Positions 18,963 to 38,073 of a stretch of 38,073 nt of DNA are shown piece by piece. Origin of the DNA: Cyanobacteriota bacterium (lineage in GTDB: Bacteria; Cyanobacteriota; Cyanobacteriia; PCC-6307; Cyanobiaceae); NCBI GenBank assembly GCA_046052125.1, contig JBJOMY010000010.1, positions 1-38,073 of the forward strand, in the 5' to 3' direction. The notes under the pieces were generated by a model. That model did not search any database. It was given only the letters and a program-made list of their open reading frames with translations, and was not told where the DNA came from. A program made the translations under genes and the position numbers. Numbering within the stretch: position 1 is the first letter of the stretch; every line of letters begins with the position of its first letter.

Positions 18963-19958
18963 GTGACCAGTTTCCTGACCGCAGAACGGGTCGATCAGGC
19001 GCAGGCGGCCCATGACACCCGCAGGCTGCGGCTGTTCAGCGGCACGGCCAACCAAGCCCTGGCCAGGGAAATTGGCGCCTACCTCGGCGTCCCCGATGGC
19101 CCGCGGGTGATCAAACGCTTTGCCGACGGCGAGCTCTACATCCAGATCCAGGAATCCATCCGCGGCTGCGATGTGTTCCTGATCCAGCCCACCTGCGCTC
19201 CGGTGAACGATCACCTGATGGAGCTGCTGGTGATGGTGGATGCCTGCAAACGGGCCTCGGCCCGGCAGATCACCGCGGTGATCCCCTACTACGGCTACGC
19301 CCGCGCCGATCGCAAAACGGCGGGCCGTGAATCAATCACGGCGAAGTTGGTGGCCAACCTGCTGGCGGTGTCAGGGGTGGATCGGGTGCTGGCGATGGAC
19401 CTGCACTCCGCCCAGATCCAGGGCTATTTCGACATCCCCTGTGACCACATCTACGGTTCACCGGTGCTGGTCGACTATCTAGCCGGGCGTGACTTCGGCG
19501 ATGTGGTGGTGGTGTCGCCCGATGTGGGCGGTGTGGCCCGCGCCCGCGCCTTCGCCAAACGCCTCAATGACGCCCCCCTGGCGATCATCGATAAGCGCCG
19601 CTCCGGCCACAACGTGGCTGAGAGCCTCACCGTGATCGGCGATGTAGCCGGCAAGACGGCCATCCTGATCGACGACATGATCGATACCGGGGGCACGATC
19701 TGCGCCGGTGCACGGCTGCTGCGGGAGAACGGCGCCACCCGCGTGCTGGCCTGCGCCACCCATCCAGTGTTCTCGGGGCCCGCGATCGAGCGCCTCTCCG
19801 CGCCCGGGCTGTTTGAGGAGGTGATCGTGACCAATTCGATCCCCATGGCAGAGGAGCGCCGCTTCCCGCAACTGCAGGTGCTGTCGGTGGCCAACATGCT
19901 CGGCGAAGCCATCTGGCGCATCCATGAAGAAAGCTCCGTGAGCTCGATGTTCCGGTGA
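18963..19958 (+). CDS. prs: Ribose-phosphate pyrophosphokinase
   Basis: FADGELYIQIQESIRGCDVF, PYYGYARADRK, DLHSAQIQGYF, VSPDVGGVARA, IDDMIDTGGT. Confidence 0.97.
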   Translation: MTSFLTAERVDQAQAAHDTRRLRLFSGTANQALAREIGAYLGVPDGPRVIKRFADGELYIQIQESIRGCDVFLIQPTCAPVNDHLMELLVMVDACKRASARQITAVIPYYGYARADRKTAGRESITAKLVANLLAVSGVDRVLAMDLHSAQIQGYFDIPCDHIYGSPVLVDYLAGRDFGDVVVVSPDVGGVARARAFAKRLNDAPLAIIDKRRSGHNVAESLTVIGDVAGKTAILIDDMIDTGGTICAGARLLRENGATRVLACATHPVFSGPAIERLSAPGLFEEVIVTNSIPMAEERRFPQLQVLSVANMLGEAIWRIHEESSVSSMFR

Positions 19959-21109
19959 GCAACGGCCAAACGCGGCGTTGGATCGCCGCAGCGCTGCTCA
20001 CCCTTTCAGCCCTGCTGCCTGCTGCCACCAGGGCTGAACAGCGCCGCATCGGGGTGTGGCTCACCAACAGTCCGAGCCCGCTCTATTACGAGCCGGGGCG
20101 CCTCGATCGGGCCGTCGCCGAACTGGCGAGCGCCGGCTTCAACACGCTCTACCCCAATGTGTGGAGCCGGGGCACCACCTTTCACCGCAGCCGCTGGGCG
20201 CCGATCGAGCCGGCCCTACTGCAGGCCAACAGCCGCCACGACCCCATCTGCCACATGACCAGCGCCGCCCACAGGCGCGGGCTGCGGGTGATCCCCTGGT
20301 TTGAGTACGGCCTGATGGAGCCCGCCGATGCCGCGGTGGTGCGGCAAAACCCGGAGTGGGTGCTGCAGAAACGCGATGGCAGCAGTGCTGTGCTGATGCA
20401 CGGCAAGGAGATGGTGTGGCTGAATCCCGCACACCCCGGCGTGCGTGAACGCTTTCTCGGGCTGATCGGGGAGATCGTGCAGCGCTGCAAGGTGGACGGC
20501 ATCCAGCTCGACGATCACTTCGCCTGGCCGGTGGAACTCGGTTACGACCCCTTCACCCGCGCTCTCTACGAACGGGAACAGGGAGCTCAACCGCCCGATA
20601 ACCACACCGATCGCACCTGGATGAGTTGGCGACGCCGGCAGCTCAGCGGCCTACTGCGTGAGCTGCGCGCCACCTTGAAGCGCAGCAGCCAGGGCAGCCC
20701 CTACGTGAGCCTGTCACCCGGCCCCTTTCGCTTTGCTTACAACCAGTGGCTGCAGGACTGGGAGCTCTGGGCCCTCGGCGGGCTAATCGATGAGCTGGTG
20801 GTGCAGAACTACGCCTATTCGCTCCAGGGGTTCGAGCGCGATCTGCAGCAGCCGGCGCTCGTGAAGGCCAGCGGCTGGGGCATCCCCGTGGAGATCGGCA
20901 TCCTCTCGGGCTTCGGCGGACGCACCACCCCCATGGCCAGCCTGAGCGAGAAGGTGCGGCTGGCGGCCGCGCGCGGCCACGGCGTGATTTATTTCTACTG
21001 GGAAGGACTCTGGGGAGCCCATGCCGGAGCTGAGGGGGGCGCCGTGCGCCGGGCCAGCCTGAAAGAACTACACAAAGGACTGAAATCCACACTTGATAGC
21101 GATCATTAG
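19955..21109 (+). CDS. Glycoside hydrolase family 10-like (DUF187/GHL10) exported protein
   Basis: Signal peptide; GVWLTN, GFNTLYPNVW, VIPWFEYG, WLNPAHPGV, DGIQLDDHF, QDWELW, VVQNY. Confidence 0.87.
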   Translation: MSNGQTRRWIAAALLTLSALLPAATRAEQRRIGVWLTNSPSPLYYEPGRLDRAVAELASAGFNTLYPNVWSRGTTFHRSRWAPIEPALLQANSRHDPICHMTSAAHRRGLRVIPWFEYGLMEPADAAVVRQNPEWVLQKRDGSSAVLMHGKEMVWLNPAHPGVRERFLGLIGEIVQRCKVDGIQLDDHFAWPVELGYDPFTRALYEREQGAQPPDNHTDRTWMSWRRRQLSGLLRELRATLKRSSQGSPYVSLSPGPFRFAYNQWLQDWELWALGGLIDELVVQNYAYSLQGFERDLQQPALVKASGWGIPVEIGILSGFGGRTTPMASLSEKVRLAAARGHGVIYFYWEGLWGAHAGAEGGAVRRASLKELHKGLKSTLDSDH

Positions 21110-21231
21110 ATTTCAAATCCCAGCGAGGAAGAGCGAGGGCGAGAAGCGCTTCTATCATTATCCGCTTATTGGATTTACGGATTAGCGAGAGATAGTAGAC
21201 AGCATTTGGTTAGAATAATCCAATTACGTTT

Positions 21232-22323
21232 ATGGTTATGACCAGGCTTCGCAGAATTGCTTCACTTAGTGCCGGAGCGAGCTTGCACATCGGCCTTTGG
21301 TGCGTTGCAACGCCTGCAGACGCCGCTACATGCATTGGAGGCTATACAGATCCACCCAACCCAGGCGATCCCTATGCAGTTAACTACCTTTCCGGAAATG
21401 ACAACAGCATACAAGCAGATCCATCTCCAGGAACAAACAATACAGCTTGTGGTTCAGGAGCAATAGCCGCAGGCGTCATACCTGGAAACGAAAACACAGC
21501 GATTGGCACGAATGCAAAAGCTGGGAACTCCAATCCAAGCGCAACTGTAACTGGTTCCGCAAACACAGCACTAGGAGCCAACTCGAAAGCTGGCCTCAAC
21601 TCAACAACAAACAACAACATCGCGATTGGCACCGGCAGCAACGCTGATGGCGGCAACGCCATCGCGATTGGCACCAATGCAAGCGCCACCTTCGCGAATT
21701 CCATGGCCCTTGGCTCTGGTGCGACGGTGACCCGTGCCAATCAGATCGTGGTGGGCACGGCCAGCAACTCCTACACCTTGCCTGGCCTGGCTAGCGGTGG
21801 CAGTTTCGTAGGCACCACCAACCAAAGCGGTGAAATCCAGTTTGTCACGGTTGATTCCACCGGCAACCTCGGCACGAACAACTTCTCGCCAACAGCGATC
21901 AATAACAGCATTAGCAGCATCAACGACAACATCAGCACGCTGAATTCATCGTTGACAGCAACCAACAGTCGCCTCAGCAGCGCTGAAAAACGGATCACCA
22001 ACGTGGAGAACCGTCTCGACACAGCCGAGAGTTCTCTCAAAACGATGAATAGCCAAATTGAGAATGTAGGCGCTCTGGCAGCAGCCCTCTCCTCGATCCC
22101 CAACCTCACATCCGACAACAAAACCTATGGCTGCGGGATCGGCACCGGCGGCTACGGCAGCGGTTGGGCCGGTGCCGCCGGTTGCACGGGCAAGGTGGGC
22201 TCCAATGTCTGGCTGAACGGCGCAATTGCCTTCACCGGTGCTAACTCAACGCCATGGGGCTCCACCAGTTCGGTGGCTGGGCGTGTAGGTGTGTTTCTGC
22301 AATGGGGCGGACCCAAACAGTAG
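21232..22323 (+). CDS. YadA-like trimeric autotransporter adhesin (type Vc)
   Basis: Signal peptide (..TPADA); head repeats NTAIG/NTALG/NIAIG/AIAIG/SMALG; neck-like NQIVVG; heptad coiled coil; GALAAALSSIP followed by four Gly/aromatic beta-strands ending GVFLQW. Confidence 0.8.
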   Translation: MVMTRLRRIASLSAGASLHIGLWCVATPADAATCIGGYTDPPNPGDPYAVNYLSGNDNSIQADPSPGTNNTACGSGAIAAGVIPGNENTAIGTNAKAGNSNPSATVTGSANTALGANSKAGLNSTTNNNIAIGTGSNADGGNAIAIGTNASATFANSMALGSGATVTRANQIVVGTASNSYTLPGLASGGSFVGTTNQSGEIQFVTVDSTGNLGTNNFSPTAINNSISSINDNISTLNSSLTATNSRLSSAEKRITNVENRLDTAESSLKTMNSQIENVGALAAALSSIPNLTSDNKTYGCGIGTGGYGSGWAGAAGCTGKVGSNVWLNGAIAFTGANSTPWGSTSSVAGRVGVFLQWGGPKQ

Positions 22324-22344
22324 AGACACCCCAGCAGCTCACCG

Positions 22345-22668
22345 ATGTCGATCGCCACGCAACGTCTGATCCTGGCTCTGCCTGCCCTCCTCTGGCCTTG
22401 GCTCACCATCAGTGCAATCGCCCAGACGGGAGCCACCATCAACGAACAGACCCTGCGTTTGCGCTTCGTGTCTGAATGCATGGGGGCATCCAGCGATACA
22501 GCCACACTCAGCTTTTGCAATTGCTCCTTTAGCAAATTGATCGCTCGCTACGGTTTCAAAAGCGTGCTGCAGCAGGATGCGATTGTGAGAGCCAGTAATG
22601 CCAAAGATCTTGTTCAGCTTGCCCGTCTTGCCTGGGAGCCTGAATTCCGTAGCTGCCGCACCCCGTAG
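22345..22668 (+). CDS. Small exported 4-Cys hypothetical protein
   Basis: Signal peptide (..SAIA), C-x12-CxC-...-C pattern; 21 bp after the adhesin stop. Confidence 0.7.
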   Translation: MSIATQRLILALPALLWPWLTISAIAQTGATINEQTLRLRFVSECMGASSDTATLSFCNCSFSKLIARYGFKSVLQQDAIVRASNAKDLVQLARLAWEPEFRSCRTP

Positions 22669-22696
22669 GATCGCTTCGAGCAAGCCACGCAGCCGG

Positions 22697-23554
22697 ATGG
22701 GGCGATCCATCCTGGCGGCGTGTATCGCGCTCTTGCTCTGCTGCGTGGGTAGCAAGGCGATCAGCGCACCTGAGGATCCGGATCTCACCAAGGCGCGAAC
22801 ACAGTTTGAAGCTGGGGATATCGTTGGCGCCATTGAACTCTGGAGTGGAAGGCTCATCCGCCAACCCGACCATCAATCAGCACGCTTTAATCGTGCCCAG
22901 GCTTACTTGGTGCTGGAGCAACATCAACTCGCCCTGGATGATCTCCAACAACTGCTATCGATTCAGCAAGGTCGGCCGATCGCAGAGGCCTACATCATGC
23001 GTGGCGTAGCGCTCACAGGGCTAGGCCGCCATCAGCAAGCCCTCGAGGATTTTGATACGGCCTGGCGGCTGGGCAAGAGCCCGACAGCACTCGCAAACAA
23101 AGCGATGACGCTCAACAGCCTGGGGCGACGATCTGAGGCTTATGCCCTGATGGAGCAGTTGGTGCAGATCGAAGCGAGCACGGCGAATTTCTTGAATCTC
23201 GCCAGCCTGCAAAAAAGCCAAGGCAACCCCGCAGCCTGCATTCAAACCACCAGCAGCATCATCCGCAGCACACCAACCCATGCACAGGCCTATGCCTTGC
23301 GTGGCCTCTGCAAAGAACAGCAGGGCCAATCGGAATCAGCCTTGGCTGATCTTTTGCGCAGCCAGTCGCTAGCCCCCCATCAACCGGACACACTGCTGGC
23401 GATCGGAACCATCCTACGAAAACGCGGCAAGCAGGAAGAAGGCACGCAGTGGATCCTCAAGGCCGCCAGCCTGTATTTGATCGACCGCAAACCCATTGAG
23501 CACAAGAATGCCCTGCAGGCCGCGCAGGCCACCAACCAAAACCCGAAGCACTAA
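22697..23554 (+). CDS. Exported tetratricopeptide-repeat protein
   Basis: Hydrophobic N-terminus; TPR units ARFNRAQAYLVL..ALDDL, AYIMRGVALTGLG..ALEDF, AYALRGLCKEQQG..ALADL. Confidence 0.85.
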   Translation: MGRSILAACIALLLCCVGSKAISAPEDPDLTKARTQFEAGDIVGAIELWSGRLIRQPDHQSARFNRAQAYLVLEQHQLALDDLQQLLSIQQGRPIAEAYIMRGVALTGLGRHQQALEDFDTAWRLGKSPTALANKAMTLNSLGRRSEAYALMEQLVQIEASTANFLNLASLQKSQGNPAACIQTTSSIIRSTPTHAQAYALRGLCKEQQGQSESALADLLRSQSLAPHQPDTLLAIGTILRKRGKQEEGTQWILKAASLYLIDRKPIEHKNALQAAQATNQNPKH

Positions 23555-24900
23555 AGCTTCTGCAAGCTATCCCAGAACGGAAGGATCTGCTGCGTGAAGA
23601 TGGCAATCACAGGCCGCTGGCGCAACACAACATTGGCATTAATCGACATCCCCGAGCGAAGAATCAAATCGCGCCCCTTATAGCGGAGAGCGCTGCGATT
23701 GAGATCAACAGTAACGGGGAAACGAAAGAAGTTGTAGGTTTGATCAGGGGCCAGCACATCCGAACCGATCGACTGAACACGCCCCTTGAGTTCACCGAAC
23801 TCGTTGTAAGGAAAAGCATCAACCCGCACATTCACCAGCTGTCCATTGCGTACAAAACCAATATCACGATTGGACACAAAGATGCGAGCCACCAGATGAT
23901 CGGTTGGCACGATCTTGAGGATCGGCACCTCGCTCTCCACCACAAAGCCAGGGGCTGTGGGCTTCAGGTCGAACACCAAACCGTTCACCGGCGACTTGAT
24001 CTCCTGATATTTCAACGTGAGCTCAGCCTCACTGATCTGGCTGGATAGCTCTGCCAATTGCTTTTCGCTCTCCTCCACCTTGGAGGAGAAGTCGATGCGG
24101 GTCATGGCCTCTGTGTTGGCGAGCTTCGACCTCGCCTCATCCAAGGCTTCACGGCTGCGATTGAGGTTGGAGCTCAGGCTGCGCACTTCGCCACGCAGCA
24201 GGATCACTTCCTGCTTTTCTTTCATGAACTGCGAGCGAGCCATGGCGCCCTGGGCCGTGAGGGGGGCAATATCCCGGAGAATCTGCTCGCGGATGGCAAG
24301 GGCCTCGCGCTTGGAGCTGAGTTGATAGCGCGCCGCATCCAGGTTGGATTGGGCCTGCATCACGCCGCTGCGGGCGGCTGACACACGCGAGGCATATTCC
24401 GAACGCAGCGCCGCCAACTTGCCGGCCTGGTTGGCGGAAAGCTGGGTTCGATCCACCACGGCACCAAGCTGACCACGGCTGAGCTGCAGATCCGCTTCCA
24501 CCCGCTCCCGCACAGCCTTAAGCGCTTTGAGCTTGGATTTCACGGCGGTGGTGTCCATTTCCAGGAGCACCTGGCCAGCGCGCACCGATTGGCCATCCTT
24601 CACCAAAATATCGAGCACAACGCCACCCATGGGCGCCTTCACATCCTTCGTGGTGCCCTTCGGCTCCAGCTTGCCTGTGGCTTGCACCGTTTCATCAATG
24701 CGTGCAAACGACGACCAAACAATCCCGAAGCCCGCCACACCCACAAGGGTCCAGATGATCCAGGAACTCCAGCGACGGCTCGGCTGCAGAGCCGTCCAGT
24801 GCCGTTGGCCCTTCTCCTCAGTGATCCGATGAACAACTTTGTCGCCGGCCCGCTGGAGAGCCGGAAGGGCCCGATGCTCGATCCAACGCTTTAGATCCAT
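23551..24900 (-). CDS. HlyD family type I secretion membrane fusion protein
   Basis: TM then IDETVQATGKLEP, VKAPMGGVV..ILVKDGQSV, long coiled coil, IKSPVNGLV, DIGFV..GQ.V.VRVDAFPYNEFGEL.G.V..IGSD, LRSGM. Confidence 0.93.
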   Translation of the reverse strand: MDLKRWIEHRALPALQRAGDKVVHRITEEKGQRHWTALQPSRRWSSWIIWTLVGVAGFGIVWSSFARIDETVQATGKLEPKGTTKDVKAPMGGVVLDILVKDGQSVRAGQVLLEMDTTAVKSKLKALKAVRERVEADLQLSRGQLGAVVDRTQLSANQAGKLAALRSEYASRVSAARSGVMQAQSNLDAARYQLSSKREALAIREQILRDIAPLTAQGAMARSQFMKEKQEVILLRGEVRSLSSNLNRSREALDEARSKLANTEAMTRIDFSSKVEESEKQLAELSSQISEAELTLKYQEIKSPVNGLVFDLKPTAPGFVVESEVPILKIVPTDHLVARIFVSNRDIGFVRNGQLVNVRVDAFPYNEFGELKGRVQSIGSDVLAPDQTYNFFRFPVTVDLNRSALRYKGRDLILRSGMSINANVVLRQRPVIAIFTQQILPFWDSLQKL

Positions 24901-27542
24901 TGAAACGCGTTCTGGTACTGCGTTTGGCTGATCAAACCACTGCCAACGCCGGCTGCGAAGCCCCACTGCATCAGCGAGATCCCCTCAAAATGCGCGATTG
25001 CGTCTTCACCGCGATACAGCCAACTCTCCGATGTTGGTGCCGGTGAGAGTGATGACGCCAATGCAGCCGGTGCATCCCCCAGCCAATAACTGGTGCCGGG
25101 ATCCAGGCTAGACAAAGGCTGCAGCTCCACCGAATCCTTCGTCAAATCAAAGCTCTGTATCCAGGCATAGCTTAAAGAGTTCGAATAGCACAAGCCACCC
25201 TCTTGGCCACTCAGCACGAAGCGATCTGCACCGTCACCACCCACCAAACGATCCACTTCGCCAACGCTGTTCCCATCGGAGCCCACCAATCTGGAGCCGC
25301 CGGAGCCGGCCATCAACACGTCCGATCCGCCCCGACCGATCAACTGATCCATGCCGGTTCCTCCGGCCAACCAGTCGTTCTGAAGACCGCCGATCAACAG
25401 ATCGTTGCCGGCCTGGCCCCAGAGGCGATTGCCTTGATCCTGGCAACCGATAATTCGGTCATCACCGGCGCCACCCTGCACCGACCGCGCCACAGCCCCT
25501 GAGGTGCCGTATTGATAGGTCGCCCCACCGGCGGGCAACCACACTTGCTCCATCAGAGCCTGGTCGAGCGTGAAGCGACCGATGGCCTGCCCCATCGCCA
25601 GACCGGTGATGTTGTCGAAGGAGAAGTGAATCCCTCCATAGATGCGGCTCAGGCCCGACTCCTCAGCGGCCTGCATCAACGAGGTGTAGGAACGCGTGAT
25701 CTCCCGCTGGTTACCGCCAACAATGGTGAAGGTCTGGGCATCGCCCAGCAGTTGACCAGCCACGGCCGCTGCGGCTGCCGAGAAGGTGCTGTGGCCCGAG
25801 GGGAAGGAGGGGAAGGGAGGCGTGCTGATCAGAGGTAACCAGCCCGGATCAGCCACGGTTTCTGGATTGCCGTCGCGATCGGCTTGCTGAATCGCCGTAA
25901 CAGGACGCCAGAAGGCCGGGTCATACTTCACATCCCAGGCTGCAATCCCGGCGTCCGCCAACGCCATGCCAACCGCCGCATAGAGGCGCACGCTGGCCAG
26001 CAGATTGAGTTGCTGCTGTTCGGCAATGGTGGAAACGATGCTTTGCCAATGGCCGGGCGGTGTTTCCGTGCCAGCTCCGTTCGCCCAGAACTGGGCAATC
26101 TCTCCCTGTTCCGCTGAGCGCAAGCTGCTGGTGCTCGAACCCAGCTGCTTCACCTGCGCAAAGGCCTCGGCATAGGCCGCGGAATTGAGCGCGGGCAGGC
26201 CAGGAATCAGCGGATTGAGCCCAGGGGTGGCCTGGGTAATCGAACCCCTGATCCAGGGATCAGCATCTCCCCAATCCGGCAACGAAGCCGGCATGGGGAA
26301 GGCGGCACTGGTGGGCAGATAGGCACCGGCAACAGCCTTGAGAGGGTCAGGGGGGGCATAACTGGTGCTGCCCAGCAAGTTGCGATCACTCGCACGCAGG
26401 GTGAGCAGCGCTGTAGCGGCCTCACGGCCCAGTACGTCGCCGCGGAGGGTGTCGGGAATGGGGAGAGCCCGAGCGAGGAACTGCTCGGCTGTGGTGACCG
26501 CCGTGGTGGCGTAGCTGCGGCCTTGAAACACCTCCGCCAACACCAAACCAGCTGCCCGTGCCATCGCCACGGAGAGATCCGAACCGCTCCAACGCTGGGG
26601 ATCAGCCTGGATGGCATACCCCGCGTAGGGAGAACCCTGGGCGGCGTTCACCACGTCGTAGAGGGCTGTGTTGAGCAGGGCCAAAGCACGCGCCACGAGG
26701 GGAGGCGGAAGCTTTTCGGCCGCCACACCATCCAGGAGCAGGCGATTCCAAAAGGTGAGGTCCTGCAGATGCGGGTCGATCTGGGAGCGACCATCCACCA
26801 CGATCGTGGTTTGCGCTCCCAGCCCCGCGGCAACCGATGCGGGAACAGCAGAGTTGCCCGCATACAACTGGCGCGATGCCAACCCCAACACACTGCCGCC
26901 ATTGAGCTGCAGGGGGCGCTCCGCCAACAAAGCCAGATCCTGAGCCCGATCACCGGGGCGCACCACGTAGGAGAACCGAAGCTCGCGGCTACCGCTGCCG
27001 CCGATCAAACGGGCCTGCGCCACGCCGCCCTGAAGCGCCAGGGCCAGGGTTGGCGCCCCGCGCACCAACACCGCTTCCGAAAACTGAAGCCGCAGGTCGA
27101 TCACATCACCCACGCGGTAGGTGCGGTTGCGGCTGCCGCAGCGCACACTCAGCAGCTGGGGAGGCTGACTGAGCGATGGGAGGGGAGCGGTTGTTTGCGC
27201 TAATGAACCTGGCTGGGAGCCGGTGGGGAGAGCCAGTGGGCTGAGCTGGCCTTGCAACTGGAGCGTGCAGCCCGGCACTAGATCCAGCTGAGCGATCGCA
27301 TCACCCGAGCGCATGGTGTAGGTGAACAGCACCTGCCGAGAGCCATCTCCGCTCAGATAGCGAGCCATGGCCGGGGAACCACCCAGGTTGAGCGGCAACG
27401 CCTGCCGGGACGCCAGGCGCACGGGCTCGTCAAAGTCGAGCGCCAGCACCAGCACGGAGCCAACCCGGAGCGGCGCGGCCAATGGATCGGGCCAAAGCCG
27501 CCGCACTGCCTGGATCCGTGTGGTTAGCGCAGAGGTCACCAC
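24891..27542 (-). CDS. Vanadium-dependent haloperoxidase (PAP2 superfamily) with two N-terminal Ig-like repeats and C-terminal RTX Ca2+-binding repeats
   Basis: Vanadate-site motifs KYDPAFWRP, TPPFPSFPSGHS, SRIYGGIHF; GGxGxD-like nonapeptides (GGAGDDRII, GQAGNDLLI, GGTGMDQLI, GGDGADRFV); two adhesin-type repeats (FSEAV..G.PTL.L....A....GSGS..L.F.Y.V..GD). Confidence 0.85.
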   Translation of the reverse strand: MVTSALTTRIQAVRRLWPDPLAAPLRVGSVLVLALDFDEPVRLASRQALPLNLGGSPAMARYLSGDGSRQVLFTYTMRSGDAIAQLDLVPGCTLQLQGQLSPLALPTGSQPGSLAQTTAPLPSLSQPPQLLSVRCGSRNRTYRVGDVIDLRLQFSEAVLVRGAPTLALALQGGVAQARLIGGSGSRELRFSYVVRPGDRAQDLALLAERPLQLNGGSVLGLASRQLYAGNSAVPASVAAGLGAQTTIVVDGRSQIDPHLQDLTFWNRLLLDGVAAEKLPPPLVARALALLNTALYDVVNAAQGSPYAGYAIQADPQRWSGSDLSVAMARAAGLVLAEVFQGRSYATTAVTTAEQFLARALPIPDTLRGDVLGREAATALLTLRASDRNLLGSTSYAPPDPLKAVAGAYLPTSAAFPMPASLPDWGDADPWIRGSITQATPGLNPLIPGLPALNSAAYAEAFAQVKQLGSSTSSLRSAEQGEIAQFWANGAGTETPPGHWQSIVSTIAEQQQLNLLASVRLYAAVGMALADAGIAAWDVKYDPAFWRPVTAIQQADRDGNPETVADPGWLPLISTPPFPSFPSGHSTFSAAAAAVAGQLLGDAQTFTIVGGNQREITRSYTSLMQAAEESGLSRIYGGIHFSFDNITGLAMGQAIGRFTLDQALMEQVWLPAGGATYQYGTSGAVARSVQGGAGDDRIIGCQDQGNRLWGQAGNDLLIGGLQNDWLAGGTGMDQLIGRGGSDVLMAGSGGSRLVGSDGNSVGEVDRLVGGDGADRFVLSGQEGGLCYSNSLSYAWIQSFDLTKDSVELQPLSSLDPGTSYWLGDAPAALASSLSPAPTSESWLYRGEDAIAHFEGISLMQWGFAAGVGSGLISQTQYQNAFQWI

Positions 27543-27642
27543 GGCGCAGGCCTAATCAGGGGCCTTGGACATTAAGGATCTTGCGAAGACGCTGCCACGA
27601 AGGAAGCATCCTTCGCATCAATCCAGATAACGGCTATCAGGC

Positions 27643-28761
27643 TCAGACCAAGGGCATCTTCATCACCAACACGCGAAGCAGACCCTCCAGCAGCACCAAA
27701 CCCAGCACAATCCCTGCACTCCAACGCACGAAACGCAGACGCCGCCGCTGCTGACGGGGCAAACGCAACGGGAGGCCCGCCTGACTCTGGAGCCTGCGCA
27801 ATGCCGCCAATTTCAGCTCAACACTCACCAGGTTCACAATCGACACCACCAAGGCTGTGCCGCTCAACAGCAGGCGAGGCCAGAGGCCCATGCCGATCAC
27901 TTTGTAAAAGGGCAGCACGGCCGCCAGGATCGAACCCAAGCCCAATGCCAAGGCCAGAGGCGACACCAACACCATGGCCACGCAGGGGATCGCCAGCAGT
28001 GCGGCCAACAAACCAACGATCTGCGTGAGCCAAGACGAGAACCGCGAAGCGTTCAGGCGCAACTCACGCACACCACTGATGGCCGAGCTCGGGGCCCTCA
28101 CAATGCGCGGTTCCAGCGAAGCGGGGTCGGAGCCGGCGGGCCAACGCACCAGGGCCTGCGTGGGCGGATCCAGCACCATGGCCCCCTCCGGAGCCTCGGC
28201 CAGGAGCCCGGGCAACGCATCCAGGGATGTGGAGTAGGGATAACTGCCGCAGGGATCGTCGGTTTCGAGCAGCTCCCCATATCCACTCACAATCGCGGCC
28301 GCCACAGGCAGCTGCAGCGCCAGGGTGGCCTGCTCATCACGCACGCTGCGCAGCAAGGCTTGGCCAACATCCAAGGCGCGCTGGGCAGGGTTGTCGACGG
28401 CAACGGGAAGGTTGAAGAAGGCTCTGAATTCCAACCAGGCAGCGTCGGAACTGCGATGGGGCGGCACGAAGCCGCCCAGCAGCTGAGCTTCTTGGCGCAG
28501 ACGCTGCAGCAGGGCCGTGGCCTCCGGCTCAGTGGCCGGCACCGGGTGATCGTTTAACCAGAAGCTGCGCCGCAGGCGCAACTGCAGGGTGCTCACCTGG
28601 CTGATCTGGCCGGCCAGCAGATGAGCCTGGCAACGGTTGCAGAGGTTGGGCTGGGTGCGGGAGCGGGCAATCCCCAACAGCTTCGAGACGCCAGCCAACG
28701 GACCCGCCAGGGGCACGGAGCAGGCCAGGCAGCGGTCGGATAGGGGCAGAGAACGCGTCAT
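27643..28761 (-). CDS. Degenerate class III nucleotide cyclase-like membrane protein with N-terminal Cys4 motif
   Basis: CLAC..PNLCNRC; cyclase-fold remnants (RAFFNLPV..DNPAQRAL, LPVAAAIVSG, AEAPEGAMVLD); 3-4 C-terminal TM helices. Confidence 0.65.
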   Translation of the reverse strand: MTRSLPLSDRCLACSVPLAGPLAGVSKLLGIARSRTQPNLCNRCQAHLLAGQISQVSTLQLRLRRSFWLNDHPVPATEPEATALLQRLRQEAQLLGGFVPPHRSSDAAWLEFRAFFNLPVAVDNPAQRALDVGQALLRSVRDEQATLALQLPVAAAIVSGYGELLETDDPCGSYPYSTSLDALPGLLAEAPEGAMVLDPPTQALVRWPAGSDPASLEPRIVRAPSSAISGVRELRLNASRFSSWLTQIVGLLAALLAIPCVAMVLVSPLALALGLGSILAAVLPFYKVIGMGLWPRLLLSGTALVVSIVNLVSVELKLAALRRLQSQAGLPLRLPRQQRRRLRFVRWSAGIVLGLVLLEGLLRVLVMKMPLV

Positions 28762-28775
28762 CGGAACCAGCGAGA

Positions 28776-29690
28776 TCAGGAGGAGAGCTTGGTGTTGGTT
28801 TGATAAGCGGCATGCACGACACGGATCAACTCCTGCAACCGCGGTTCACGGGCAAGCGCCAGGGGAAAGATGAGCAGGTCTTGGTCGATCAGGCCGGTGC
28901 TGAGGTTGAGGGGAGAGATCTGCAGATCAGGATGAATCGTCTGAGCGAACGCCACCGCACGGGCTGTGGATGGCACAACCGTGGCTTGATCCTCCACCAA
29001 CGATTCCCAGGCCCCCGGCTGCAAAAACTTATCCGTCACAGGCTGATTCCATAGATTCAACCGTGTGCATTCCTGAGCGTAAACGCTATCGGCATCCACG
29101 GCCAAGGCAGGGGATGGATACGCCTTCAGATCGTGCCAATCAACGTTGGCCTGACGCTGCAGCGGATGATTGGGATCGCTATAGAGCAGAACGGGATCTT
29201 CACTGAGGGCCAAGATCCCGTAGGGATCACAGGCCTGAGGGCGTGACAACGGCAAGGTGGTTGTTACCCCCAGTGCTGCTGCCAGATCCAAACGCGAGCC
29301 GAGCAGAGCATCGAGCAGCCCCTGCTCCAACAGAGCTAGGGAATGACGGGCGGAGAGCCAGCGCTTGGGGAGCGGCTGCACGAGCTCGGATGGCAACCGC
29401 AGCTGGCCGGCCTCAGCCCACGGCTCCGCGACCAGACGCAGACGCCCGCCCTCCCGGGCACGGAGACGCTGAGCCACGGCGCGCAGGTCGCGCTGCACAT
29501 CAAGATTGCGCGCGGCCTGATAAACCCCGTCGCGTTTTTCCAAGTCGAGGTTGAGAATCTTGGCGCAGGCCCTGGCGCCCCGATAGGCGTTGCTCTGGGC
29601 GATCCCACACACCTCCCCCACCACGTGGGAACTGCCATAAACCTCGAGCAGATCGAGGTAGAGCAAGCCCTCGGAAAAGAGATCCCGCAT
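28776..29690 (-). CDS. LysR-like transcriptional regulator (picocyanobacterial type)
   Basis: N-terminal HTH LDLLEVYGSSHVVGEVCGIAQSNAYR; LALLEQGLLDALL and HPL....V...DL..YPSPAL resemble a LysR substrate-binding domain; ~304 aa. Confidence 0.72.
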   Translation of the reverse strand: MRDLFSEGLLYLDLLEVYGSSHVVGEVCGIAQSNAYRGARACAKILNLDLEKRDGVYQAARNLDVQRDLRAVAQRLRAREGGRLRLVAEPWAEAGQLRLPSELVQPLPKRWLSARHSLALLEQGLLDALLGSRLDLAAALGVTTTLPLSRPQACDPYGILALSEDPVLLYSDPNHPLQRQANVDWHDLKAYPSPALAVDADSVYAQECTRLNLWNQPVTDKFLQPGAWESLVEDQATVVPSTARAVAFAQTIHPDLQISPLNLSTGLIDQDLLIFPLALAREPRLQELIRVVHAAYQTNTKLSS

Positions 29691-29778
29691 AGGCACCACC
29701 TTATGCGAGAAGCGACTCAGACCCTTGCCAAAAGCGGACGATCACCTTGCAGAATCTGCATTCCACGAAGCCTTGACA

Positions 29779-30371
29779 ATGGCCGCTCGAGCATGGCGGA
29801 GAGCACTGCAATCCATGCTCCCCAGAAATCGAAATAACCGAGTTTCGGATAACAGCCTCTGTCTGAGAGTTGATCAGCTGGCTGCTGTCTGGCCGTTTCA
29901 CATCGTGATCCGGGATGGTGATGTCAACCGAATCGGTCCTGCTTTAAAGAAATGCCTGGGTCACCGCGACGCGGTGGGGGCAACGCTGCCCAGCCTGCTG
30001 GCGATCACCGCACCGGATGATCTGGCTGCGCTGAACTGGAAGCAGCCGGAACCGCTGCTGGATCGGCCTCTGGAACTCTCCACGCCATCAGGGCTGTGCT
30101 TCAGCGGCGAGCTGCAACCGTTGCAGGGCGATGGGTGGCTGCTGATTTTGCAACCGATCGCCCAATCGATCCGCGACCTGCACCGCTACGGACTGACGCT
30201 GCAAGACCTCAGCCTCAGCGATCCCCTGCGCCACCATGTGTTGCCCTCACTGCTGAACGAGGGACTGCAAGACATGCTGCTGCAGGAAGCAAGCCTGGCG
30301 AAGGAGGAGCTGGGTGAGGCCGCGATTGAACGGGCCTGGCTTGATCTGGGGCTGGAAGCAGGCCCGCAGCC

Positions 30372-30375
<4 letters not shown>
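29779..30375 (+). CDS. Stand-alone HNOBA/H-NOXA (soluble guanylate cyclase PAS-like) domain protein
   Basis: WPFHIVI...VNRIGPALKK, ITAP, LCFSGEL, LLILQP...IRDLHRYGLTLQDLSLSDPL parallels the HNOBA consensus FPFH..F.....I.Q.G..L...L.L.GQM....FL.SP....L.DL...GL.L.D...HD; start uncertain (29779 or 29815). Confidence 0.72.
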
Positions 30376-33330
<2,955 letters not shown>

Positions 33331-33338
<8 letters not shown>

Positions 33339-34173
33339 GGCCAAACAAGGAGCGCAGCAATCCCGGCTTGGCCCCAGCCTCGAGGGCGTCGCCGGGCGGC
33401 AATTCGGTAATGGATTGGGGTGCCGAGCCACTGTCAGAGGGAGCCAGCTGCAGCTGAGCCAGCGCGGCGGACACCTGCTCGCGCATCCAGAGCTCATACA
33501 TCTCATCGCGCAAGCGCTGACGCATGGGCTCGTCGAGCTGGGCTGGCCAGTGGCGCTCATGGCGCAGGATCACCCACCAACCCTCCGCCTCAAAGGGGGG
33601 CCACAGCTGCCCGGGGGTGGAGATGCGCAAACGTTCGGCCAGCACGGGATTGATGCGGCCGAGCTCCATGGGGCCAATCAAGCCATTGAGCTGCTGCTCC
33701 ACCCCTTCTGAATAAATCGAGGCGAGGTCGGCAAAGGTGTCTTCCTCTTCCTCGAGGCGCAGGTGGAGCTCTGCAGCTTTGCCACGCTCACGGGTGCGAA
33801 GCAGCGAATAGCTCACGCGGTCGAGATTGGATTTGCGTTCGAGGAAAAGGGGTTCCACCCGCGGACCGAAGGTGGCGTCCTTGAACATCTCGAGCTGCAA
33901 CGCCTGGAAAAGACGCAAACTCATCTGGGGCTCGCTGATCCCCTGGTGCTCCAGCCAAGCCGTGAGACTGACCTGGTCGGTGATGTGCTCACGGGCCAAG
34001 AAGGCCTGCTGAAAAGCCACCTGCTGCTCATGGGTTGGGGCATGAGCCACTGCATGGCTGCGCTCGAGATGACGCCGAAGCAATAACGGCATCAGGTCGA
34101 GTTCGTGCAACAGAGCCGGAAGCTGCTCCAGGGGGATGGAATCCCCAGCGAGCAACAGGGTTGGCAGAACCAT
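33331..34173 (-). CDS. PpiC/parvulin-type peptidylprolyl isomerase associated with cyanobacterial T1SS
   Basis: FLERKSNLDRVSYSLLR, ELHLRLEE.E.TFADLA..YSEG.E...NGLIGP, PGQLWPP..WWVILR.E...PAQLD. Confidence 0.85.
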
Positions 34174-34228
34174 CGAAACTCAGAGCGTCAGCAGGACCGT
34201 GGCCCTGCTGACGTTGTAGCAAGAATGA

Positions 34229-37200
34229 TCAGCCCAAGCCAAGGGCTGCCTTATTGGCATTGGTCACAAGACCAGCACTGGCAGCTGTATTGAGGTCTCC
34301 CAAGGAAACCCCAACGATTTCAGCCAGAGAGGCGACATTCATCTTGGTGTTCTCAACGGAAGCGTTCTTAGCCAAGGAGCCACTGTTGTAGTAACCGGAG
34401 TAGAGATAAGCAGACGTCACTGTTGGGTCTGTGGATGACTGGCCGTAGAGCACATAGGTGAAGTCAATGGCGGCGTCCTTACCGACACCAGCAGTTGCAG
34501 AACTGGAACCAGCGCCAGCACCAAACTCAATCAGACTCGCAATCTGTCCACGGACGAAAGAGACATCCTTGGCCTGAGCGGCAGTGACACTGCCAGCCAG
34601 AACATCCTCATACAGCTTGCCATCAGTCAATCGCAGAGCGAGGGAAGTTGTACTTTCGGTGACTTCGATAGCGGTACTAACAACACTGGTGGCCCCATAG
34701 AACAGGCCAAGCTTGTCCTGTACAGCCCCACCGGCAATCATATTGAATCCGGTGATCGTATTGAAAGCAAACGCCGTTTCACCTGTAGCACGGCCTCCAT
34801 CTGCGTTGAAGGTGGTGTAGGTGGTGGAAGCCCCAACATTAAAGATCAGCGAGTCGCCAGTGTTATCAGCCCCACCGAAAGTAGCCGTGACATTCTTGGA
34901 GTTGGTAAGCGCTGTGGACAGCTGAACCACATTGGCGCCTGCATCCCCATTCAGAGTGACCGCCGTGATGCTGCCGATGGCATCAACTTTGGCGTTACCG
35001 AAGTCAACGGTGCTGCCGGTAATGGTTGCATCATCCACACCAGTGATCGTGGTTGCTGCTTTGAGAATGGAGGACGATGCAGCCGTGAGATTGGCGGCTG
35101 TATCACTCAGGGAGTAAGTGAGTGCCCCAGTGCCATTATTGGCATCAATCGTGGCTACTTGAGCAACCGTTGCCGAGCCAGTGTTCACGTTGACATCCAC
35201 ATCGGTCTTGGTGTCGATCGTGGTGGCCGAAATGGCGGTGGCGATGGCCGCCGCCGTACCGGTCAGGGCTCCAACCTGGGTGGCGTTGACGCTGACGGTT
35301 GTCTTGGCATCCAGCTGGTTGAGCTTGGCGGCATCCAAGGTCGCGTCGTTCACCGTCAGGGTGTAGGCATTGCCGTTGCCCGTGAGGCCAAGCAGGGTGT
35401 CTGCCGCTCCGGTGGCGATCGTGGCGGTGACCACACCGGTTGTATCGGCATCCACCGTGTTGGCATCAGCAACGGACACCGTTGCATCCGTCAGGGTCGC
35501 GGCGTAGTCGGTCCTAGTGGTGATGCCATCGGCAGCGATCACTGTCTTCACATCAGCCACAAGGCCCTGGATCGTCGTCGCCGAGGTCGCATCCACCGCC
35601 ACAGTTGTCTTGCCATCCAGCGTGTTCAGCGCTGTGGCATCGACTGTCGTGTCGTTGATCGTCAAGGTGTAAGCATTGACGCCGTCAGTGAGCGCACTCA
35701 GGGCAGCCGCTGTTCCGGTCGTGATTGTGGCTGTGACCACACCATTGGTGCGGCCATCGACGGTGTTGGCATCCGCCACCGACACCGAGGTGTCGGTCAG
35801 GGTGACCTTGTGGTCGGCGGCCCTAGTGATCGACGCCGAGCCTGTGGCTGTCAGCACAGCAGCGGCCAGGCCGGTGATGGTGGTCACCGCCGCAGCATCG
35901 ACGGTTGCTGTGGTGTTGGCGTCGATCGTGTTGAGATCGGTCGCCGCTGCCGTCCCGGCATCCACCGTCACGCCCACATCGGCCTTGGTGTCGATCGTGT
36001 TGGCCGAGATGGCGGTGGCGATCGCCGCCGCTGTACCTGTGAGGGTGCCGACCTGGTTCGCGTCGACCTTGACGGCGGTCTTGCCATCCAGCGTGTTGAG
36101 CTTGGCGGCATCCACCGTGACGTCGGTCACCGTGAGGGTGAGCGCCGCATTGGCTGCACCGGTGAGTGCCAACAAGGCATCAGCCGTCGCCGCTGGAATC
36201 GTGGCGGTGACCACACCCGTGGTGTTGGCCACCATCGTGTTGGCCTGAGTCACGCTGGCTGTTCCAACCGTGACGGTGGCGGCCACGTTGGCAGCGGTGT
36301 CAATCGTGGTAGCCGTCAACACCTCAGCGATGTCAGCCGCATTGCCGGTGATGGTGGTCACAGCTGCGGCATTGACCGGCGCCGTCGTGTTGGCGTCGAT
36401 CGTGTTGAGGTCAGTCGCCGCTGCCGAACCGGCATTCACGGTCACACCCACATCGGCCTTGGTGTCGATCGTGGTGGCCGAAATGGCGGTGGCGATGGCC
36501 GCCGCCGTACCGGTCAGGGCTCCAACCTGGGTGGCGTTGACGCTGACGGTTGTCTTGGCATCCAGCTGGTTGAGCTTGGCGGCATCCAAGGTCGCGTCGT
36601 TCACCGTCAGGGTGTAGGCATTGCCGTTGCCCGTGAGGCCAAGCAGGGTGTCTGCCGCTCCGGTGGCGATCGTGGCGGTGACCACACCGGTTGTATCGGC
36701 ATCCACCGTGTTGGCATCAGCAACGGACACCGTTGCATCCGTCAGGGTCGCGGCGTAGTCGGTCCTAGTGGTGATGCCATCGGCAGCGATCACTGTCTTC
36801 ACATCAGCCACAAGGCCCTGGATCGTCGTCGCCGAGGTCGCATCCACCGCCACAGTTGTCTTGCCATCCAGCGTGTTCAGCGCTGTGGCATCGACTGTCG
36901 TGTCGTTGATCGTCAAGGTGTAAGCATTGACGCCGTCAGTGAGCGCACTCAGGGCAGCCGCTGTTCCGGTCGTGATTGTGGCTGTGACCACACCATTGGT
37001 GCGGCCATCGACGGTGTTGGCATCCGCCACCGACACCGAGGTGTCGGTCAGGGTGACCTTGTGGTCGGCGGCCCTAGTGATCGACGCCGAGCCTGTGGCT
37101 GTCAGCACAGCAGCGGCCAGGCCGGTGATGGTGGTCACCGCCGCAGCATCGACGGTTGCTGTGGTGTTGGCGTCGATCGTGTTGAGATCGGTCGCCGCTG

Positions 37201-38071
37201 CCGTCCCGGCATCCACCGTCACGCCCACATCGGCCTTGGTGTCGATCGTGTTGGCCGAGATGGCGGTGGCGATCGCCGCCGCTGTACCTGTGAGGGTGCC
37301 GACCTGGTTCGCGTCGACCTTGACGGCGGTCTTGCCATCCAGCGTGTTGAGCTTGGCGGCATCCACCGTGACGTCGGTCACCGTGAGGGTGAGCGCCGCA
37401 TTGGCTGCACCGGTGAGTGCCAACAAGGCATCAGCCGTCGCCGCTGGAATCGTGGCGGTGACCACACCCGTGGTGTTGGCCACCATCGTGTTGGCCTGAG
37501 TCACGCTGGCTGTTCCAACCGTGACGGTGGCGGCCACGTTGGCAGCGGTGTCAATCGTGGTAGCCGTCAACACCTCAGCGATGTCAGCCGCATTGCCGGT
37601 GATGGTGGTGATGCTGGTGGCATCCACGTTGGCCTCGGTGGCCGCATCCATGGCCTTGAGATCGCTGGCCAGAGCCGTCGGTCCGACCACCACAACCAAC
37701 GTGTTGGCGGTGGTGGTGCTGTTGCCGGCCACATCAGTCACCGTGGCACGGAAGCGGTAGGTGCCATCGGCACGGGCGGCAGCCGCAGGGTCTGCCACAA
37801 CAGTCCAGGCCCCACCATTGAGGCTCTGCTCGTAAACGACCGTGGCACCAGCCTCCTGGGGAGGGAGGGTGAGCGGGAAGGCCGTGGCGTTGTTCGTGAT
37901 CTTGTAGGTGGTGCCGTCGATGGTGAGGGTGCCGGTGGTGGGGGCTGTCTGATCAACCGTGATCGCATCGGCATTGCCGTCGCCAACGATCTTGTTGCCT
38001 GCCTTATCGGTCTGCTCAATCTTGATCTTGCCGGCGGCATAGGTGCCTTCCGCCAGATCAAAGCTGGTGCC
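34229..38071 (-). CDS. Giant repetitive Ala/Thr/Val/Asp-rich surface protein with bacterial Ig-like domains, probable T1SS substrate (5' end outside window)
   Basis: The frame of the 1189-aa ORF stays open from 37798 to the edge (GTSFDLAEGTYAAGKIKIEQTDKAGN..ITVDQTAP..DGTYRFRATVTDVAGN, Big-type); ~50-55 aa solenoid-like modules; C-terminal FNTITGF...DKLGL resembles T1SS cargo tails; no Cys in the visible part. Confidence 0.85.
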   Translation of the reverse strand, partial: GTSFDLAEGTYAAGKIKIEQTDKAGNKIVGDGNADAITVDQTAPTTGTLTIDGTTYKITNNATAFPLTLPPQEAGATVVYEQSLNGGAWTVVADPAAAARADGTYRFRATVTDVAGNSTTTANTLVVVVGPTALASDLKAMDAATEANVDATSITTITGNAADIAEVLTATTIDTAANVAATVTVGTASVTQANTMVANTTGVVTATIPAATADALLALTGAANAALTLTVTDVTVDAAKLNTLDGKTAVKVDANQVGTLTGTAAAIATAISANTIDTKADVGVTVDAGTAAATDLNTIDANTTATVDAAAVTTITGLAAAVLTATGSASITRAADHKVTLTDTSVSVADANTVDGRTNGVVTATITTGTAAALSALTDGVNAYTLTINDTTVDATALNTLDGKTTVAVDATSATTIQGLVADVKTVIAADGITTRTDYAATLTDATVSVADANTVDADTTGVVTATIATGAADTLLGLTGNGNAYTLTVNDATLDAAKLNQLDAKTTVSVNATQVGALTGTAAAIATAISATTIDTKADVGVTVNAGSAAATDLNTIDANTTAPVNAAAVTTITGNAADIAEVLTATTIDTAANVAATVTVGTASVTQANTMVANTTGVVTATIPAATADALLALTGAANAALTLTVTDVTVDAAKLNTLDGKTAVKVDANQVGTLTGTAAAIATAISANTIDTKADVGVTVDAGTAAATDLNTIDANTTATVDAAAVTTITGLAAAVLTATGSASITRAADHKVTLTDTSVSVADANTVDGRTNGVVTATITTGTAAALSALTDGVNAYTLTINDTTVDATALNTLDGKTTVAVDATSATTIQGLVADVKTVIAADGITTRTDYAATLTDATVSVADANTVDADTTGVVTATIATGAADTLLGLTGNGNAYTLTVNDATLDAAKLNQLDAKTTVSVNATQVGALTGTAAAIATAISATTIDTKTDVDVNVNTGSATVAQVATIDANNGTGALTYSLSDTAANLTAASSSILKAATTITGVDDATITGSTVDFGNAKVDAIGSITAVTLNGDAGANVVQLSTALTNSKNVTATFGGADNTGDSLIFNVGASTTYTTFNADGGRATGETAFAFNTITGFNMIAGGAVQDKLGLFYGATSVVSTAIEVTESTTSLALRLTDGKLYEDVLAGSVTAAQAKDVSFVRGQIASLIEFGAGAGSSSATAGVGKDAAIDFTYVLYGQSSTDPTVTSAYLYSGYYNSGSLAKNASVENTKMNVASLAEIVGVSLGDLNTAASAGLVTNANKAALGLG
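35207..37609. repeat. Two apparently identical ~1152-bp direct repeats (35207-36358 and 36458-37609), period 1251 bp
   Basis: Shadow ORFs 35676-36248 and 36927-37499 translate identically; DNA spot checks match at offset 1251; matching breaks at 35206/36457 and 36359/37610. Confidence 0.92.
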
Positions 38072-38073
38072 AA

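Follow-up and report, generated by a model that had tools for sequence, protein, structure and literature searches.

A picocyanobacterial type I secretion locus links an RTX-tailed enzyme of the vanadium haloperoxidase family to a LysR-type, pseudo-cyclase and HNOBA gene cassette

The window analysed here is the whole of contig JBJOMY010000010.1 (C10; 38,073 nucleotides), part of a 2.64-Mb, 99.96%-complete genome of a Cyanobacteriota bacterium (Cyanobiaceae; assembly GCA_046052125.1). From position 23551 to the contig end it carries a type I secretion locus, within which an RTX-tailed enzyme of the vanadium haloperoxidase (VHPO) family is encoded together with a very divergent LysR-type transcriptional regulator (LTTR), a membrane-anchored pseudo-cyclase and a stand-alone HNOBA protein; the last three genes are referred to below as the cassette. 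All eight genes of this part were found where a preliminary description of the DNA had placed them, and their GC content by codon position follows the pattern of coding DNA. Profile searches, alignments and predicted folds bore out each gene assignment of that description, including those of the pseudo-cyclase, the LysR-like protein and the HNOBA protein. The overlap that it reported between the enzyme stop codon and the start of hlyD is likewise real: hlyD has an in-frame ATG at 24900, so that its reading frame shares 10 nt with the enzyme gene, whose TAA stands at 24891-24893. The coordinates of all features are collected in Table 1.

Table 1. Genes and features of the type I secretion locus and its left flank in the window.
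Feature	Position	Strand	Basis of assignment
RTX-tailed VHPO-family enzyme, 883 aa	24891-27542	-	PAP2, HemolysinCabind; alignments to 4CIT and vanadium chloroperoxidase (VCPO)
Membrane-anchored pseudo-cyclase, 372 aa	27643-28761	-	Profile search, alignment, fold
Very divergent LysR-type regulator (LTTR), 304 aa from ATG 29690	28776-29690 (longest open reading frame to 29699, 307 aa)	-	Fold
Divergent intergenic region, candidate operator/promoter	29691-29778	.	88-124 bp depending on the HNOBA start
Stand-alone HNOBA protein (H-NOXA/PAS and start of signalling helix)	Longest open reading frame 29725-30375, 216 aa; likelier from 29779 or 29815	+	PF07701
hlyD, HlyD-type periplasmic adaptor	23551-24966 (longest open reading frame); 23551-24900 from in-frame ATG	-	TIGR01843, HlyD_3
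hlyB, HlyB-type ABC exporter	30372-33560	-	ABC_membrane 181.7 bits, ABC_tran 113.1 bits
PpiC-type peptidyl-prolyl isomerase (PPIase)	33331-34173	-	PF00639 (Rotamase) 28.4 bits, cut-off 21.7
Giant repetitive protein, C-terminal 1280 aa	34229-38073 (open reading frame 34229-38071)	-	Open reading frame, coding GC pattern; 5' end lost at contig end
YadA-like trimeric-autotransporter-type protein	21232-22323	+	YadA_head 31 bits; counterpart in sister species G014
TPR protein	22598-23554	+	TPR families; convergent with hlyD; counterpart in G014

The enzyme consists of two N-terminal repeats of ~110 aa, a catalytic domain (residues ~250-680), an RTX region (~680-790) with canonical GGxGxD nonapeptides at residues 690, 727 and 768, and a C-terminal tail. 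Giant proteins from a genome of this genus contain repeats similar to one of the two ~110-residue N-terminal ones. The PAP2 (47.1 bits, cut-off 27.2) and HemolysinCabind (32 bits, cut-off 23) families were both matched; VCPO_2nd reached only 17.8 bits in the window's enzyme, compared with 43-70 bits (cut-off 27) in the three distant cassette-linked homologues that were scanned. The best solved relative was the vanadium iodoperoxidase (VIPO) of Zobellia galactanivorans, 4CIT (E 1.6e-25, residues 406-661), and the VCPO of Curvularia inaequalis (1VNC/1IDQ) gave E 2.4e-13. HMMER alignments paired W536, K539, R546, F577, S582, G583, H584, R633 and H639 of the enzyme with W350, K353, R360, F397, S402, G403, H404, R490 and H496 of VCPO. 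According to PMC9144378, Lys353, Arg360, Ser402, Gly403, His404, Arg490 and His496 form the vanadate site of VCPO, and Trp350 and Phe397 its proposed halide site. All nine residues are kept in the cassette-linked enzymes (8/8). The ESM Atlas model of residues ~250-680 showed the two-bundle VCPO fold, with TM scores of 0.85-0.88 to clusters in which 100% of the members carry VCPO_2nd, and VCPO_N was named for its aligned part in two rows. Thus the enzyme has the vanadate ligands, catalytic His, Trp/Phe pair and two-bundle fold of the Zobellia and Curvularia enzymes, to which it adds the two N-terminal repeats, an RTX tail and a type I secretion operon with private regulators.

The RTX repeats and the adjoining genes predict that the enzyme is cargo of the adjacent HlyB/HlyD type I secretion system; hlyB lies 2.8 kb upstream of the enzyme gene. 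The surface tethering of the enzyme that the preliminary description proposed found no support. In its C-terminal GGxGxD repeats and its adjacent ABC exporter and adaptor genes the system resembles those of the serralysin proteases and family I.3 lipases; it differs from them in a cargo with the VHPO fold, in a long N-terminal extension of the ABC protein and in a three-gene signalling cassette inside the operon. A VHPO with measured activity has been described in a picocyanobacterium, namely the vanadium bromoperoxidase of marine Synechococcus sp. CC9311 (Johnson et al. 2011, as cited in PMC10427571). The window's enzyme falls instead into the VIPO/VCPO-like branch, the only solved bromoperoxidase among its listed matches being 1QI9 (E 0.0039). 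We know of no RTX tail, secretion operon or regulator cassette for the CC9311 enzyme. An RTX-tailed VHPO-like protein is by itself not unusual: one ESM Atlas cluster holds 134 such proteins, mostly cyanobacterial (HemolysinCabind 100%, VCPO_2nd 97%), and they are common in cyanobacteria.

The activity of the enzyme cannot be read from its residues, because the seven vanadate-site positions are common to VHPOs and PAP2 phosphatases; PMC9144378 reports that VHPOs and bacterial PAP2 acid phosphatases have their catalytic and vanadate-site residues in common, and that modelling the vCPO active site as a PAP2 phosphatase is feasible. If the window's enzyme were a secreted phosphatase, or an enzyme of some other kind that works without vanadate, the locus would become a phosphorus-scavenging island whose cassette answers a nutrient and not an oxidant. 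Several Atlas neighbour clusters of the enzyme are indeed auto-named 'phosphatase PAP2 family', and the distant loci described below continue with giant proteins that have phytase-like domains (103-106 bits), 5'-nucleotidase C-terminal domains and choice-of-anchor I domains. Against a phosphatase stand the E values quoted above for the iodoperoxidase and chloroperoxidase, compared with 0.093 for the only solved PAP2 phosphatase among the listed matches, the two-bundle VCPO architecture, and the retention of the Trp350 and Phe397 equivalents of the proposed halide site in every cassette-linked enzyme. We consider a phosphatase unlikely, though it deserves to be kept in view.

Upstream of the enzyme gene lies that of the pseudo-cyclase, which starts 14 nt after the stop of the LysR-type gene. 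The protein comprises a zinc-ribbon-like N-terminus with four Cys and a His, a degenerate class III cyclase domain and C-terminal hydrophobic helices with an invariant Cys. It matched no Pfam family, and a word-indexed search found only 10 relatives. A profile built from nine relatives then retrieved 106 proteins from 1.84 billion representatives; the longer ones were chosen for scanning, and 28 of these 34 carry PF00211 (Guanylate_cyc), the six exceptions being the five closest relatives of the window's protein and one fragment. When this profile was compared with the Protein Data Bank (PDB) by sequence only, a chance-level ferredoxin match (E 0.19) was all that emerged. Foldseek searches with the AlphaFold2 model returned nothing but nucleotidyl cyclases as top matches (best E 4.2e-7, prob 1.00).

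Catalytic residues were compared in a joint alignment of 22 sequences, 12 of them active relatives and 10 members of the degenerate clade. The catalytic set D-K-D-N-R (two metal-binding Asp, the substrate Lys and the transition-state Asn and Arg) is kept in 11/12 active relatives and is replaced by R62-P101-S105-D181-G185 in the window's protein; its Lys and Asn occur in none of the ten degenerate sequences. We therefore call the protein a pseudo-cyclase and not a cyclase, since the catalytic residues are gone though fold and homology are present. In contrast to the catalytic residues, C11, C14, C41, C44, H47 and C260, the last in the first hydrophobic helix, are invariant in 22/22 sequences, and the degenerate clade has invariant positions of its own besides these. 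The same three-part architecture, with the Cys4 ribbon, the His and the membrane Cys, is found in zinc-ribbon, class III cyclase and transmembrane proteins annotated as 'class 3 adenylate cyclase' in metagenomes and in Verrucomicrobiota metagenome-assembled genomes (MAGs); these retain their catalytic residues in the proportion just given and, unlike the window's protein, have unrelated neighbours. One orthologue (L017, identical to G033:C106; 2808-3527) has the Cys4 N-terminus (1-74) and the membrane part (205-372) and lacks the cyclase-like domain, either by natural deletion or through an assembly fault.

The HNOBA protein matched PF07701 with 30.6 bits (cut-off 23.4), and its orthologue in locus L021 with 25.1 bits. 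Its family profile (A3) aligned with segment 205-354 of human soluble guanylate cyclase (sGC) beta-1, the H-NOXA part (E 0.0021), and also with alpha-1. The same alignment and the Atlas record make ATG 29779 or 29815 a likelier start than 29725. The nearest ESM Atlas clusters are stand-alone HNOBA proteins (score 0.92), and further structural neighbours include fusions of HNOBA to kinase, GGDEF and cyclase domains, animal sGC among them; in one bacterial fusion cluster Guanylate_cyc is present in 100% and HNOBA in 73% of the proteins. HNOBA is a PAS-like dimerisation module that binds no haem.

As HNOBA and class III cyclase domains are two modules of sGC, the cassette could be taken for a split, nitric oxide (NO)-sensing system of the sGC kind, and the preliminary description had counted NO among its possible signals. 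We found no match to PF07700 (H-NOX) anywhere in the genome and no match to PF00211 either, in searches of limited sensitivity whose controls were positive (Caulobacter for PF07700). The cyclase homologue lacks all five catalytic residues, and HNOBA itself carries no haem. Here, moreover, separate genes encode the two modules, one on each strand, with no H-NOX partner, and the cyclase domain, predicted to be dead, is combined with a Cys4 ribbon and membrane helices. A split sGC is thus close to refuted, and both NO input and cyclic nucleotide output are unlikely.

The regulator was recognised by its fold. AlphaFold2 modelled it with high confidence (predicted local distance difference test score, pLDDT, 90.3; predicted TM score, pTM, 0.88) as a winged helix-turn-helix, a linker helix and a two-lobed effector domain. 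Foldseek placed full-length OxyR first (E 2e-11, prob 1.00), with many other LTTRs close behind; at least 500 matches reached E <= 0.001, the listed top ones being full-length LTTRs or LTTR effector domains. OxyR (6G4R, 4X6G) leads the other LTTRs only marginally, and we claim no specific kinship. By a profile of 28 family members (A2) the best PDB match was cyanobacterial NtcB (8H3V; E 0.021), collinear over both domains. We thus class the protein as a divergent LTTR by fold and not by Pfam membership; the L021 orthologue came nearer to the LysR_substrate model (24.7 bits, cut-off 28).

OxyR senses H2O2, which is the substrate of haloperoxidases. Its redox Cys pair sits in the effector domain, whereas the two invariant Cys of the window's regulator (Cys31 and Cys45, 28/28 family members) lie in the helix-turn-helix of the DNA-binding domain. 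No effector-domain Cys is conserved among the 28 members, and a redox mechanism of the OxyR type was rejected on this ground.

The regulator and HNOBA genes diverge from a short intergenic region, an arrangement that is also typical of LTTRs. It contains a perfect 6-1-6 palindrome of the T-N11-A type at 29748-29760, and a similar, imperfect one occurs in L019/L020. Near the regulator start a block is conserved with L013 and L017, and partly with L019. A promoter and terminator scan of 23000-34500 gave no more sites than shuffled sequence did.

To see how far the genes stay together, we compared related loci. In the sister species G014 the whole locus, from the giant gene to the YadA-like gene, is present in the same order at 41-82% identity. 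A scan with the regulator profile over one genome per species for 185,579 species yielded nine loci. Eight carry picocyanobacterial names; the ninth (L024, NHEC01000070.1), from a MAG labelled Planctomycetes, is nearly the same in sequence as two others, L022 and L023, and is probably a binning error. Linkage was counted by tblastn on the eight loci other than that of G014 and on G014's own locus. The HNOBA gene is divergent upstream in 8/8 loci with upstream DNA, and hlyB and/or hlyD adjoin in the same 8/8. The pseudo-cyclase gene lies downstream of the regulator in 9/9, with the cyclase-like part deleted in L017 and the gene cut by the contig end in L020. A VHPO gene comes next in all seven loci that reach more than ~550 nt past the pseudo-cyclase gene; L017 and L020 are shorter and show none. 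Co-occurrence of the four genes with hlyB/hlyD, which had been proposed as a check, therefore holds wherever the contig of a related locus extends far enough. L019 and L020 are near-duplicates, as are L022 and L023, and L024 is close to the latter pair; this leaves about six distinct lineages, which are kin and not independent.

The distant lineages have the order hlyB, a 260-aa gene, hlyD, HNOBA (reverse), regulator, pseudo-cyclase and enzyme, unlike the window and G014, where hlyD follows the enzyme gene. Their cassette proteins are 24-46% identical, compared with 60-78% for hlyB and hlyD, and GC content ranges from 0.41-0.59 in the three large distant loci that were measured up to 0.66 in the window. 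Linkage of the cassette has thus outlived long divergence and rearrangement, given these identities and the relocation of hlyD. The ~260-aa open reading frame between hlyB and hlyD (L022:5887-6660, L021:7148-7963, L019:6950-7717) is conserved, belongs to no Pfam family and has no counterpart in the window. In L021, a low-GC marine locus, a small DUF6447 gene (3673-3960) stands immediately upstream of hlyB. Following the enzyme gene, the distant loci (L019:15706-20883, L022:14667-19235, L021:15802-19620) carry a gene for a protein of 1270-1730 aa with phytase-like, 5'-nucleotidase C-terminal, choice-of-anchor I or FKBP domains, which is probably further cargo.

The element is rare. The pseudo-cyclase profile was found in 7/401 genomes sampled from the family, in 3/272 of the high-quality ones and in 2/64 genera, and among 36 other genomes of the genus the enzyme query gave a full-length match in G014 alone (1/36). 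Active relatives of the pseudo-cyclase provided a comparison: a metagenome scan with them (A5) returned 80 loci, of which about the first eight hold full-length relatives and the rest generic cyclase domains. Neither tblastn on eight of the metagenome loci nor Pfam scanning of 16 open reading frames from four of them detected HNOBA, LysR-type, VHPO, hlyB or hlyD relatives nearby. Since relatives with an intact active site lack these neighbours, linkage to the enzyme is specific to the degenerate clade. In L034 (1492-3842) and L035 (6334-8619) an active-site-intact cyclase gene is followed by genes for an AAA_22 ATPase and an sCache_3_2 protein, and in L033 and L035 such genes adjoin DUF5996 and GST genes; either of these surroundings is possibly another conserved neighbourhood. 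Stand-alone HNOBA proteins and RTX-tailed VCPO_2nd proteins are already catalogued in databases. What is new is the conserved regulator, pseudo-cyclase and HNOBA trio and its constant association with the enzyme and secretion genes, so that the unusual combination noted in the preliminary description stands for the trio and its linkage and falls away for the RTX-tailed VHPO-like protein, common as it is in cyanobacteria.

HlyD matched TIGR01843 (239.5 bits, cut-off 208.65) and HlyD_3 (85.1 bits), and its relatives begin to align at residue 28 of the longest reading frame. HlyB scored 716.7 bits with TIGR01846, slightly below the cut-off of 725.55. Its relatives align only from residue 97-189 onward, and the first ~95 codons of the longest reading frame (33270-33560) are rich in Cys, Pro, Ser and Arg, coincide in part with the end of the PPIase gene and lack an equivalent among relatives; the true start probably lies well inside the frame. 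The N-terminal extension of HlyB contains a C39-like segment (Peptidase_C39, 17.1 bits) and a stretch resembling cNMP_binding (26.5 bits).

Domains of the cNMP_binding family normally read the products of cyclases, which raises the thought that the pseudo-cyclase and HNOBA protein act on the exporter, by forming a membrane complex with this part of HlyB that gates or chaperones export. Both HlyB and the pseudo-cyclase are membrane-anchored, and the cassette always abuts hlyB/hlyD. The HlyB match, however, lies below the Pfam cut-off of 27.5 bits, no such domain was detected in the HlyB N-termini of the three distant cassette loci scanned (3/3), and the first gene of the operon encodes a DNA-binding protein of the LysR type. 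Action on the exporter is improbable in our judgement, and for the earlier proposal that a signal controls export the grounds are no stronger than for plain transcriptional regulation by the LysR-type protein.

Upstream of hlyB, the PPIase also gave a weak match to TIGR04500 and is syntenic in G014 (70% identity) and L022 (41%). The giant protein is rich in Ala, Thr, Val and Asp (21% Ala, 20% Thr), with long internal repeats and a single RTX-like motif; it matched no Pfam family, has a counterpart at the same place in G014 (41% identity) and is presumed to be a surface or secreted protein of the locus.

Base composition sets the locus apart from the rest of the contig. Housekeeping genes (for GAPDH, a group-2-type sigma factor, PRPP synthetase, 4-alpha-glucanotransferase and others) fill bases 1-21,100 with a GC content of 0.63-0.70 and third-position GC (GC3) of 0.73-0.90. 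From ~21.2 kb to the contig end GC falls to 0.53-0.66 and GC3 of the genes to 0.60-0.80, which fits a laterally acquired island containing the cassette. The left edge of the island likely lies at 21100-21250, where GC drops from ~0.67 to ~0.53 after a GHL10 gene (19955-21109); the YadA-like and TPR genes (21232-23554) form this low-GC edge (0.53-0.58) and are syntenic in G014, at 57% and 47% identity, respectively. The right edge is beyond the contig end, and the G014 contig ends before any housekeeping genes, short of its own island boundary.

A mobile block might carry the three small genes as passengers or decaying relics with no joint function with the enzyme. The rarity of the island (7/401), its GC and GC3 below those of the neighbouring housekeeping genes, the non-independence of the related loci and the loss of the cyclase-like domain in one MAG are all compatible with this. 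What speaks against it is that the genes retain full-length frames and many invariant residues at 24-46% identity, over GC contents of 0.41-0.66 and with hlyD moved. In addition, the degenerate clade keeps the Cys4 ribbon and the membrane Cys and has gained new, clade-specific invariants, the pattern of a working pseudo-enzyme and not of a pseudogene. That the trio is mere baggage appears distinctly improbable to us.

DNA nearly identical to the locus is present in freshwater metagenomes of several studies. Short contigs from four metatranscriptome runs (four studies), mostly at least 99% alike, fall on all eight genes from hlyD to the giant gene. RNA libraries can contain DNA, and these contigs are a weak hint of transcription that is silent on operon structure.

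Taken together, we favour a reading, at a probability of roughly 55%, in which the locus is a mobile type I secretion island of picocyanobacteria whose RTX cargo of the VHPO family is governed by a private LysR-type, pseudo-cyclase and HNOBA module acting through protein contacts. The island would be patchily distributed and probably mobile. Its enzyme would most likely turn H2O2 and halide into hypohalous acid outside the cell. Regulator, pseudo-cyclase, enzyme and hlyD would form one operon headed by the regulator gene, and the LysR-type protein would bind the divergent intergenic region of ~90-120 bp and set the transcription of both arms, in a direction that is likewise conjectural; control of both arms is suggested by the 14-nt gap, the 10-nt overlap and the divergent HNOBA arrangement. 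The pseudo-cyclase is expected not to produce any cyclic nucleotide. Pseudo-cyclase and HNOBA protein may jointly provide a membrane-bound input or adaptor that tunes the regulator by protein contacts, and we infer contact between the HNOBA protein and the cyclase-like domain because HNOBA-cyclase domain fusions exist elsewhere.

Under this reading, the likeliest points at which an oxidant (H2O2 or the hypohalous product) may be sensed are the Cys4 ribbon, the invariant membrane Cys and Cys31/Cys45 of the regulator. Zinc-thiolate and Cys-based oxidant sensors are known, and it is their chemistry that makes these thiols candidates. Sensing of this kind would place a dangerous extracellular oxidant generator under feedback. 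The idea may be carried further: the trio would be a three-protein sensor, a dead HNOBA-cyclase relic repurposed as a thiol detector of hypohalous acid or peroxide that holds or releases the Cys-bearing regulator. We regard this extension as speculative and rather unlikely to be right as it stands; the locus would be an LTTR-headed secretion operon for an RTX enzyme, and the chance that its trio represents a new type of sensor is modest.

Several observations weigh against the proposed island with a privately regulated oxidant generator. For the enzyme, the residues in common with PAP2 acid phosphatases leave room for another activity, and the phytase-like and 5'-nucleotidase domains of the giant proteins encoded next in the distant loci hint at phosphorus scavenging. 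Two genomes of this genus encode VHPO-like paralogues with no cassette beside them (L014, G005:C192, 9814-11514; L015, G002:C136, 9113-9766), ~28% identical over the catalytic domain. The regulator lies below both Pfam LysR models, with no HTH_1 match and 15.6 bits (E 0.011) for LysR_substrate against a cut-off of 28. The palindrome of the intergenic region is not conserved in the sister species G014, for which reason we claim no operator and treat it as a lead only. The pseudo-cyclase model is of moderate confidence (pLDDT 67.3), its cyclase-like domain being well modelled and its membrane part poorly, and the cyclase-like domain may be dispensable, given the one MAG that lacks it. The genome-wide negatives for PF00211 and PF07700 are of limited sensitivity, since the corresponding PF07701 search missed the window's own HNOBA gene, its controls giving nothing either. 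The RNA contigs are assembled, have a depth of 2-11 and carry no strand, and none of those listed bridges two genes. Finally, neither the cluster nor RTX-tailed haloperoxidases nor a module of HNOBA, LysR-type and pseudo-cyclase proteins turned up as the subject of a paper in full-text literature searches.

Few phototrophs of lakes and oceans are as abundant as picocyanobacteria. From H2O2 and halides, vanadium haloperoxidases produce reactive halogen species as well as volatile halocarbons. If the favoured reading is true, a secreted and privately regulated VHPO could serve in chemical defence, aimed at grazers, competitors or signalling molecules, or in the removal of extracellular H2O2. Genetic work is possible because one culturable isolate, the strain of G014, carries the whole locus. 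The cassette offers a tractable example of the fate of a dead class III cyclase, in which conservation predicts specific protein contacts, and a bacterial, H-NOX-free context for the HNOBA module of sGC. A pseudo-cyclase that partners a transcription factor would be a first among bacteria, and if the three-protein sensor proved true, picocyanobacteria would hold a secreted halogenating weapon under a closed feedback loop.

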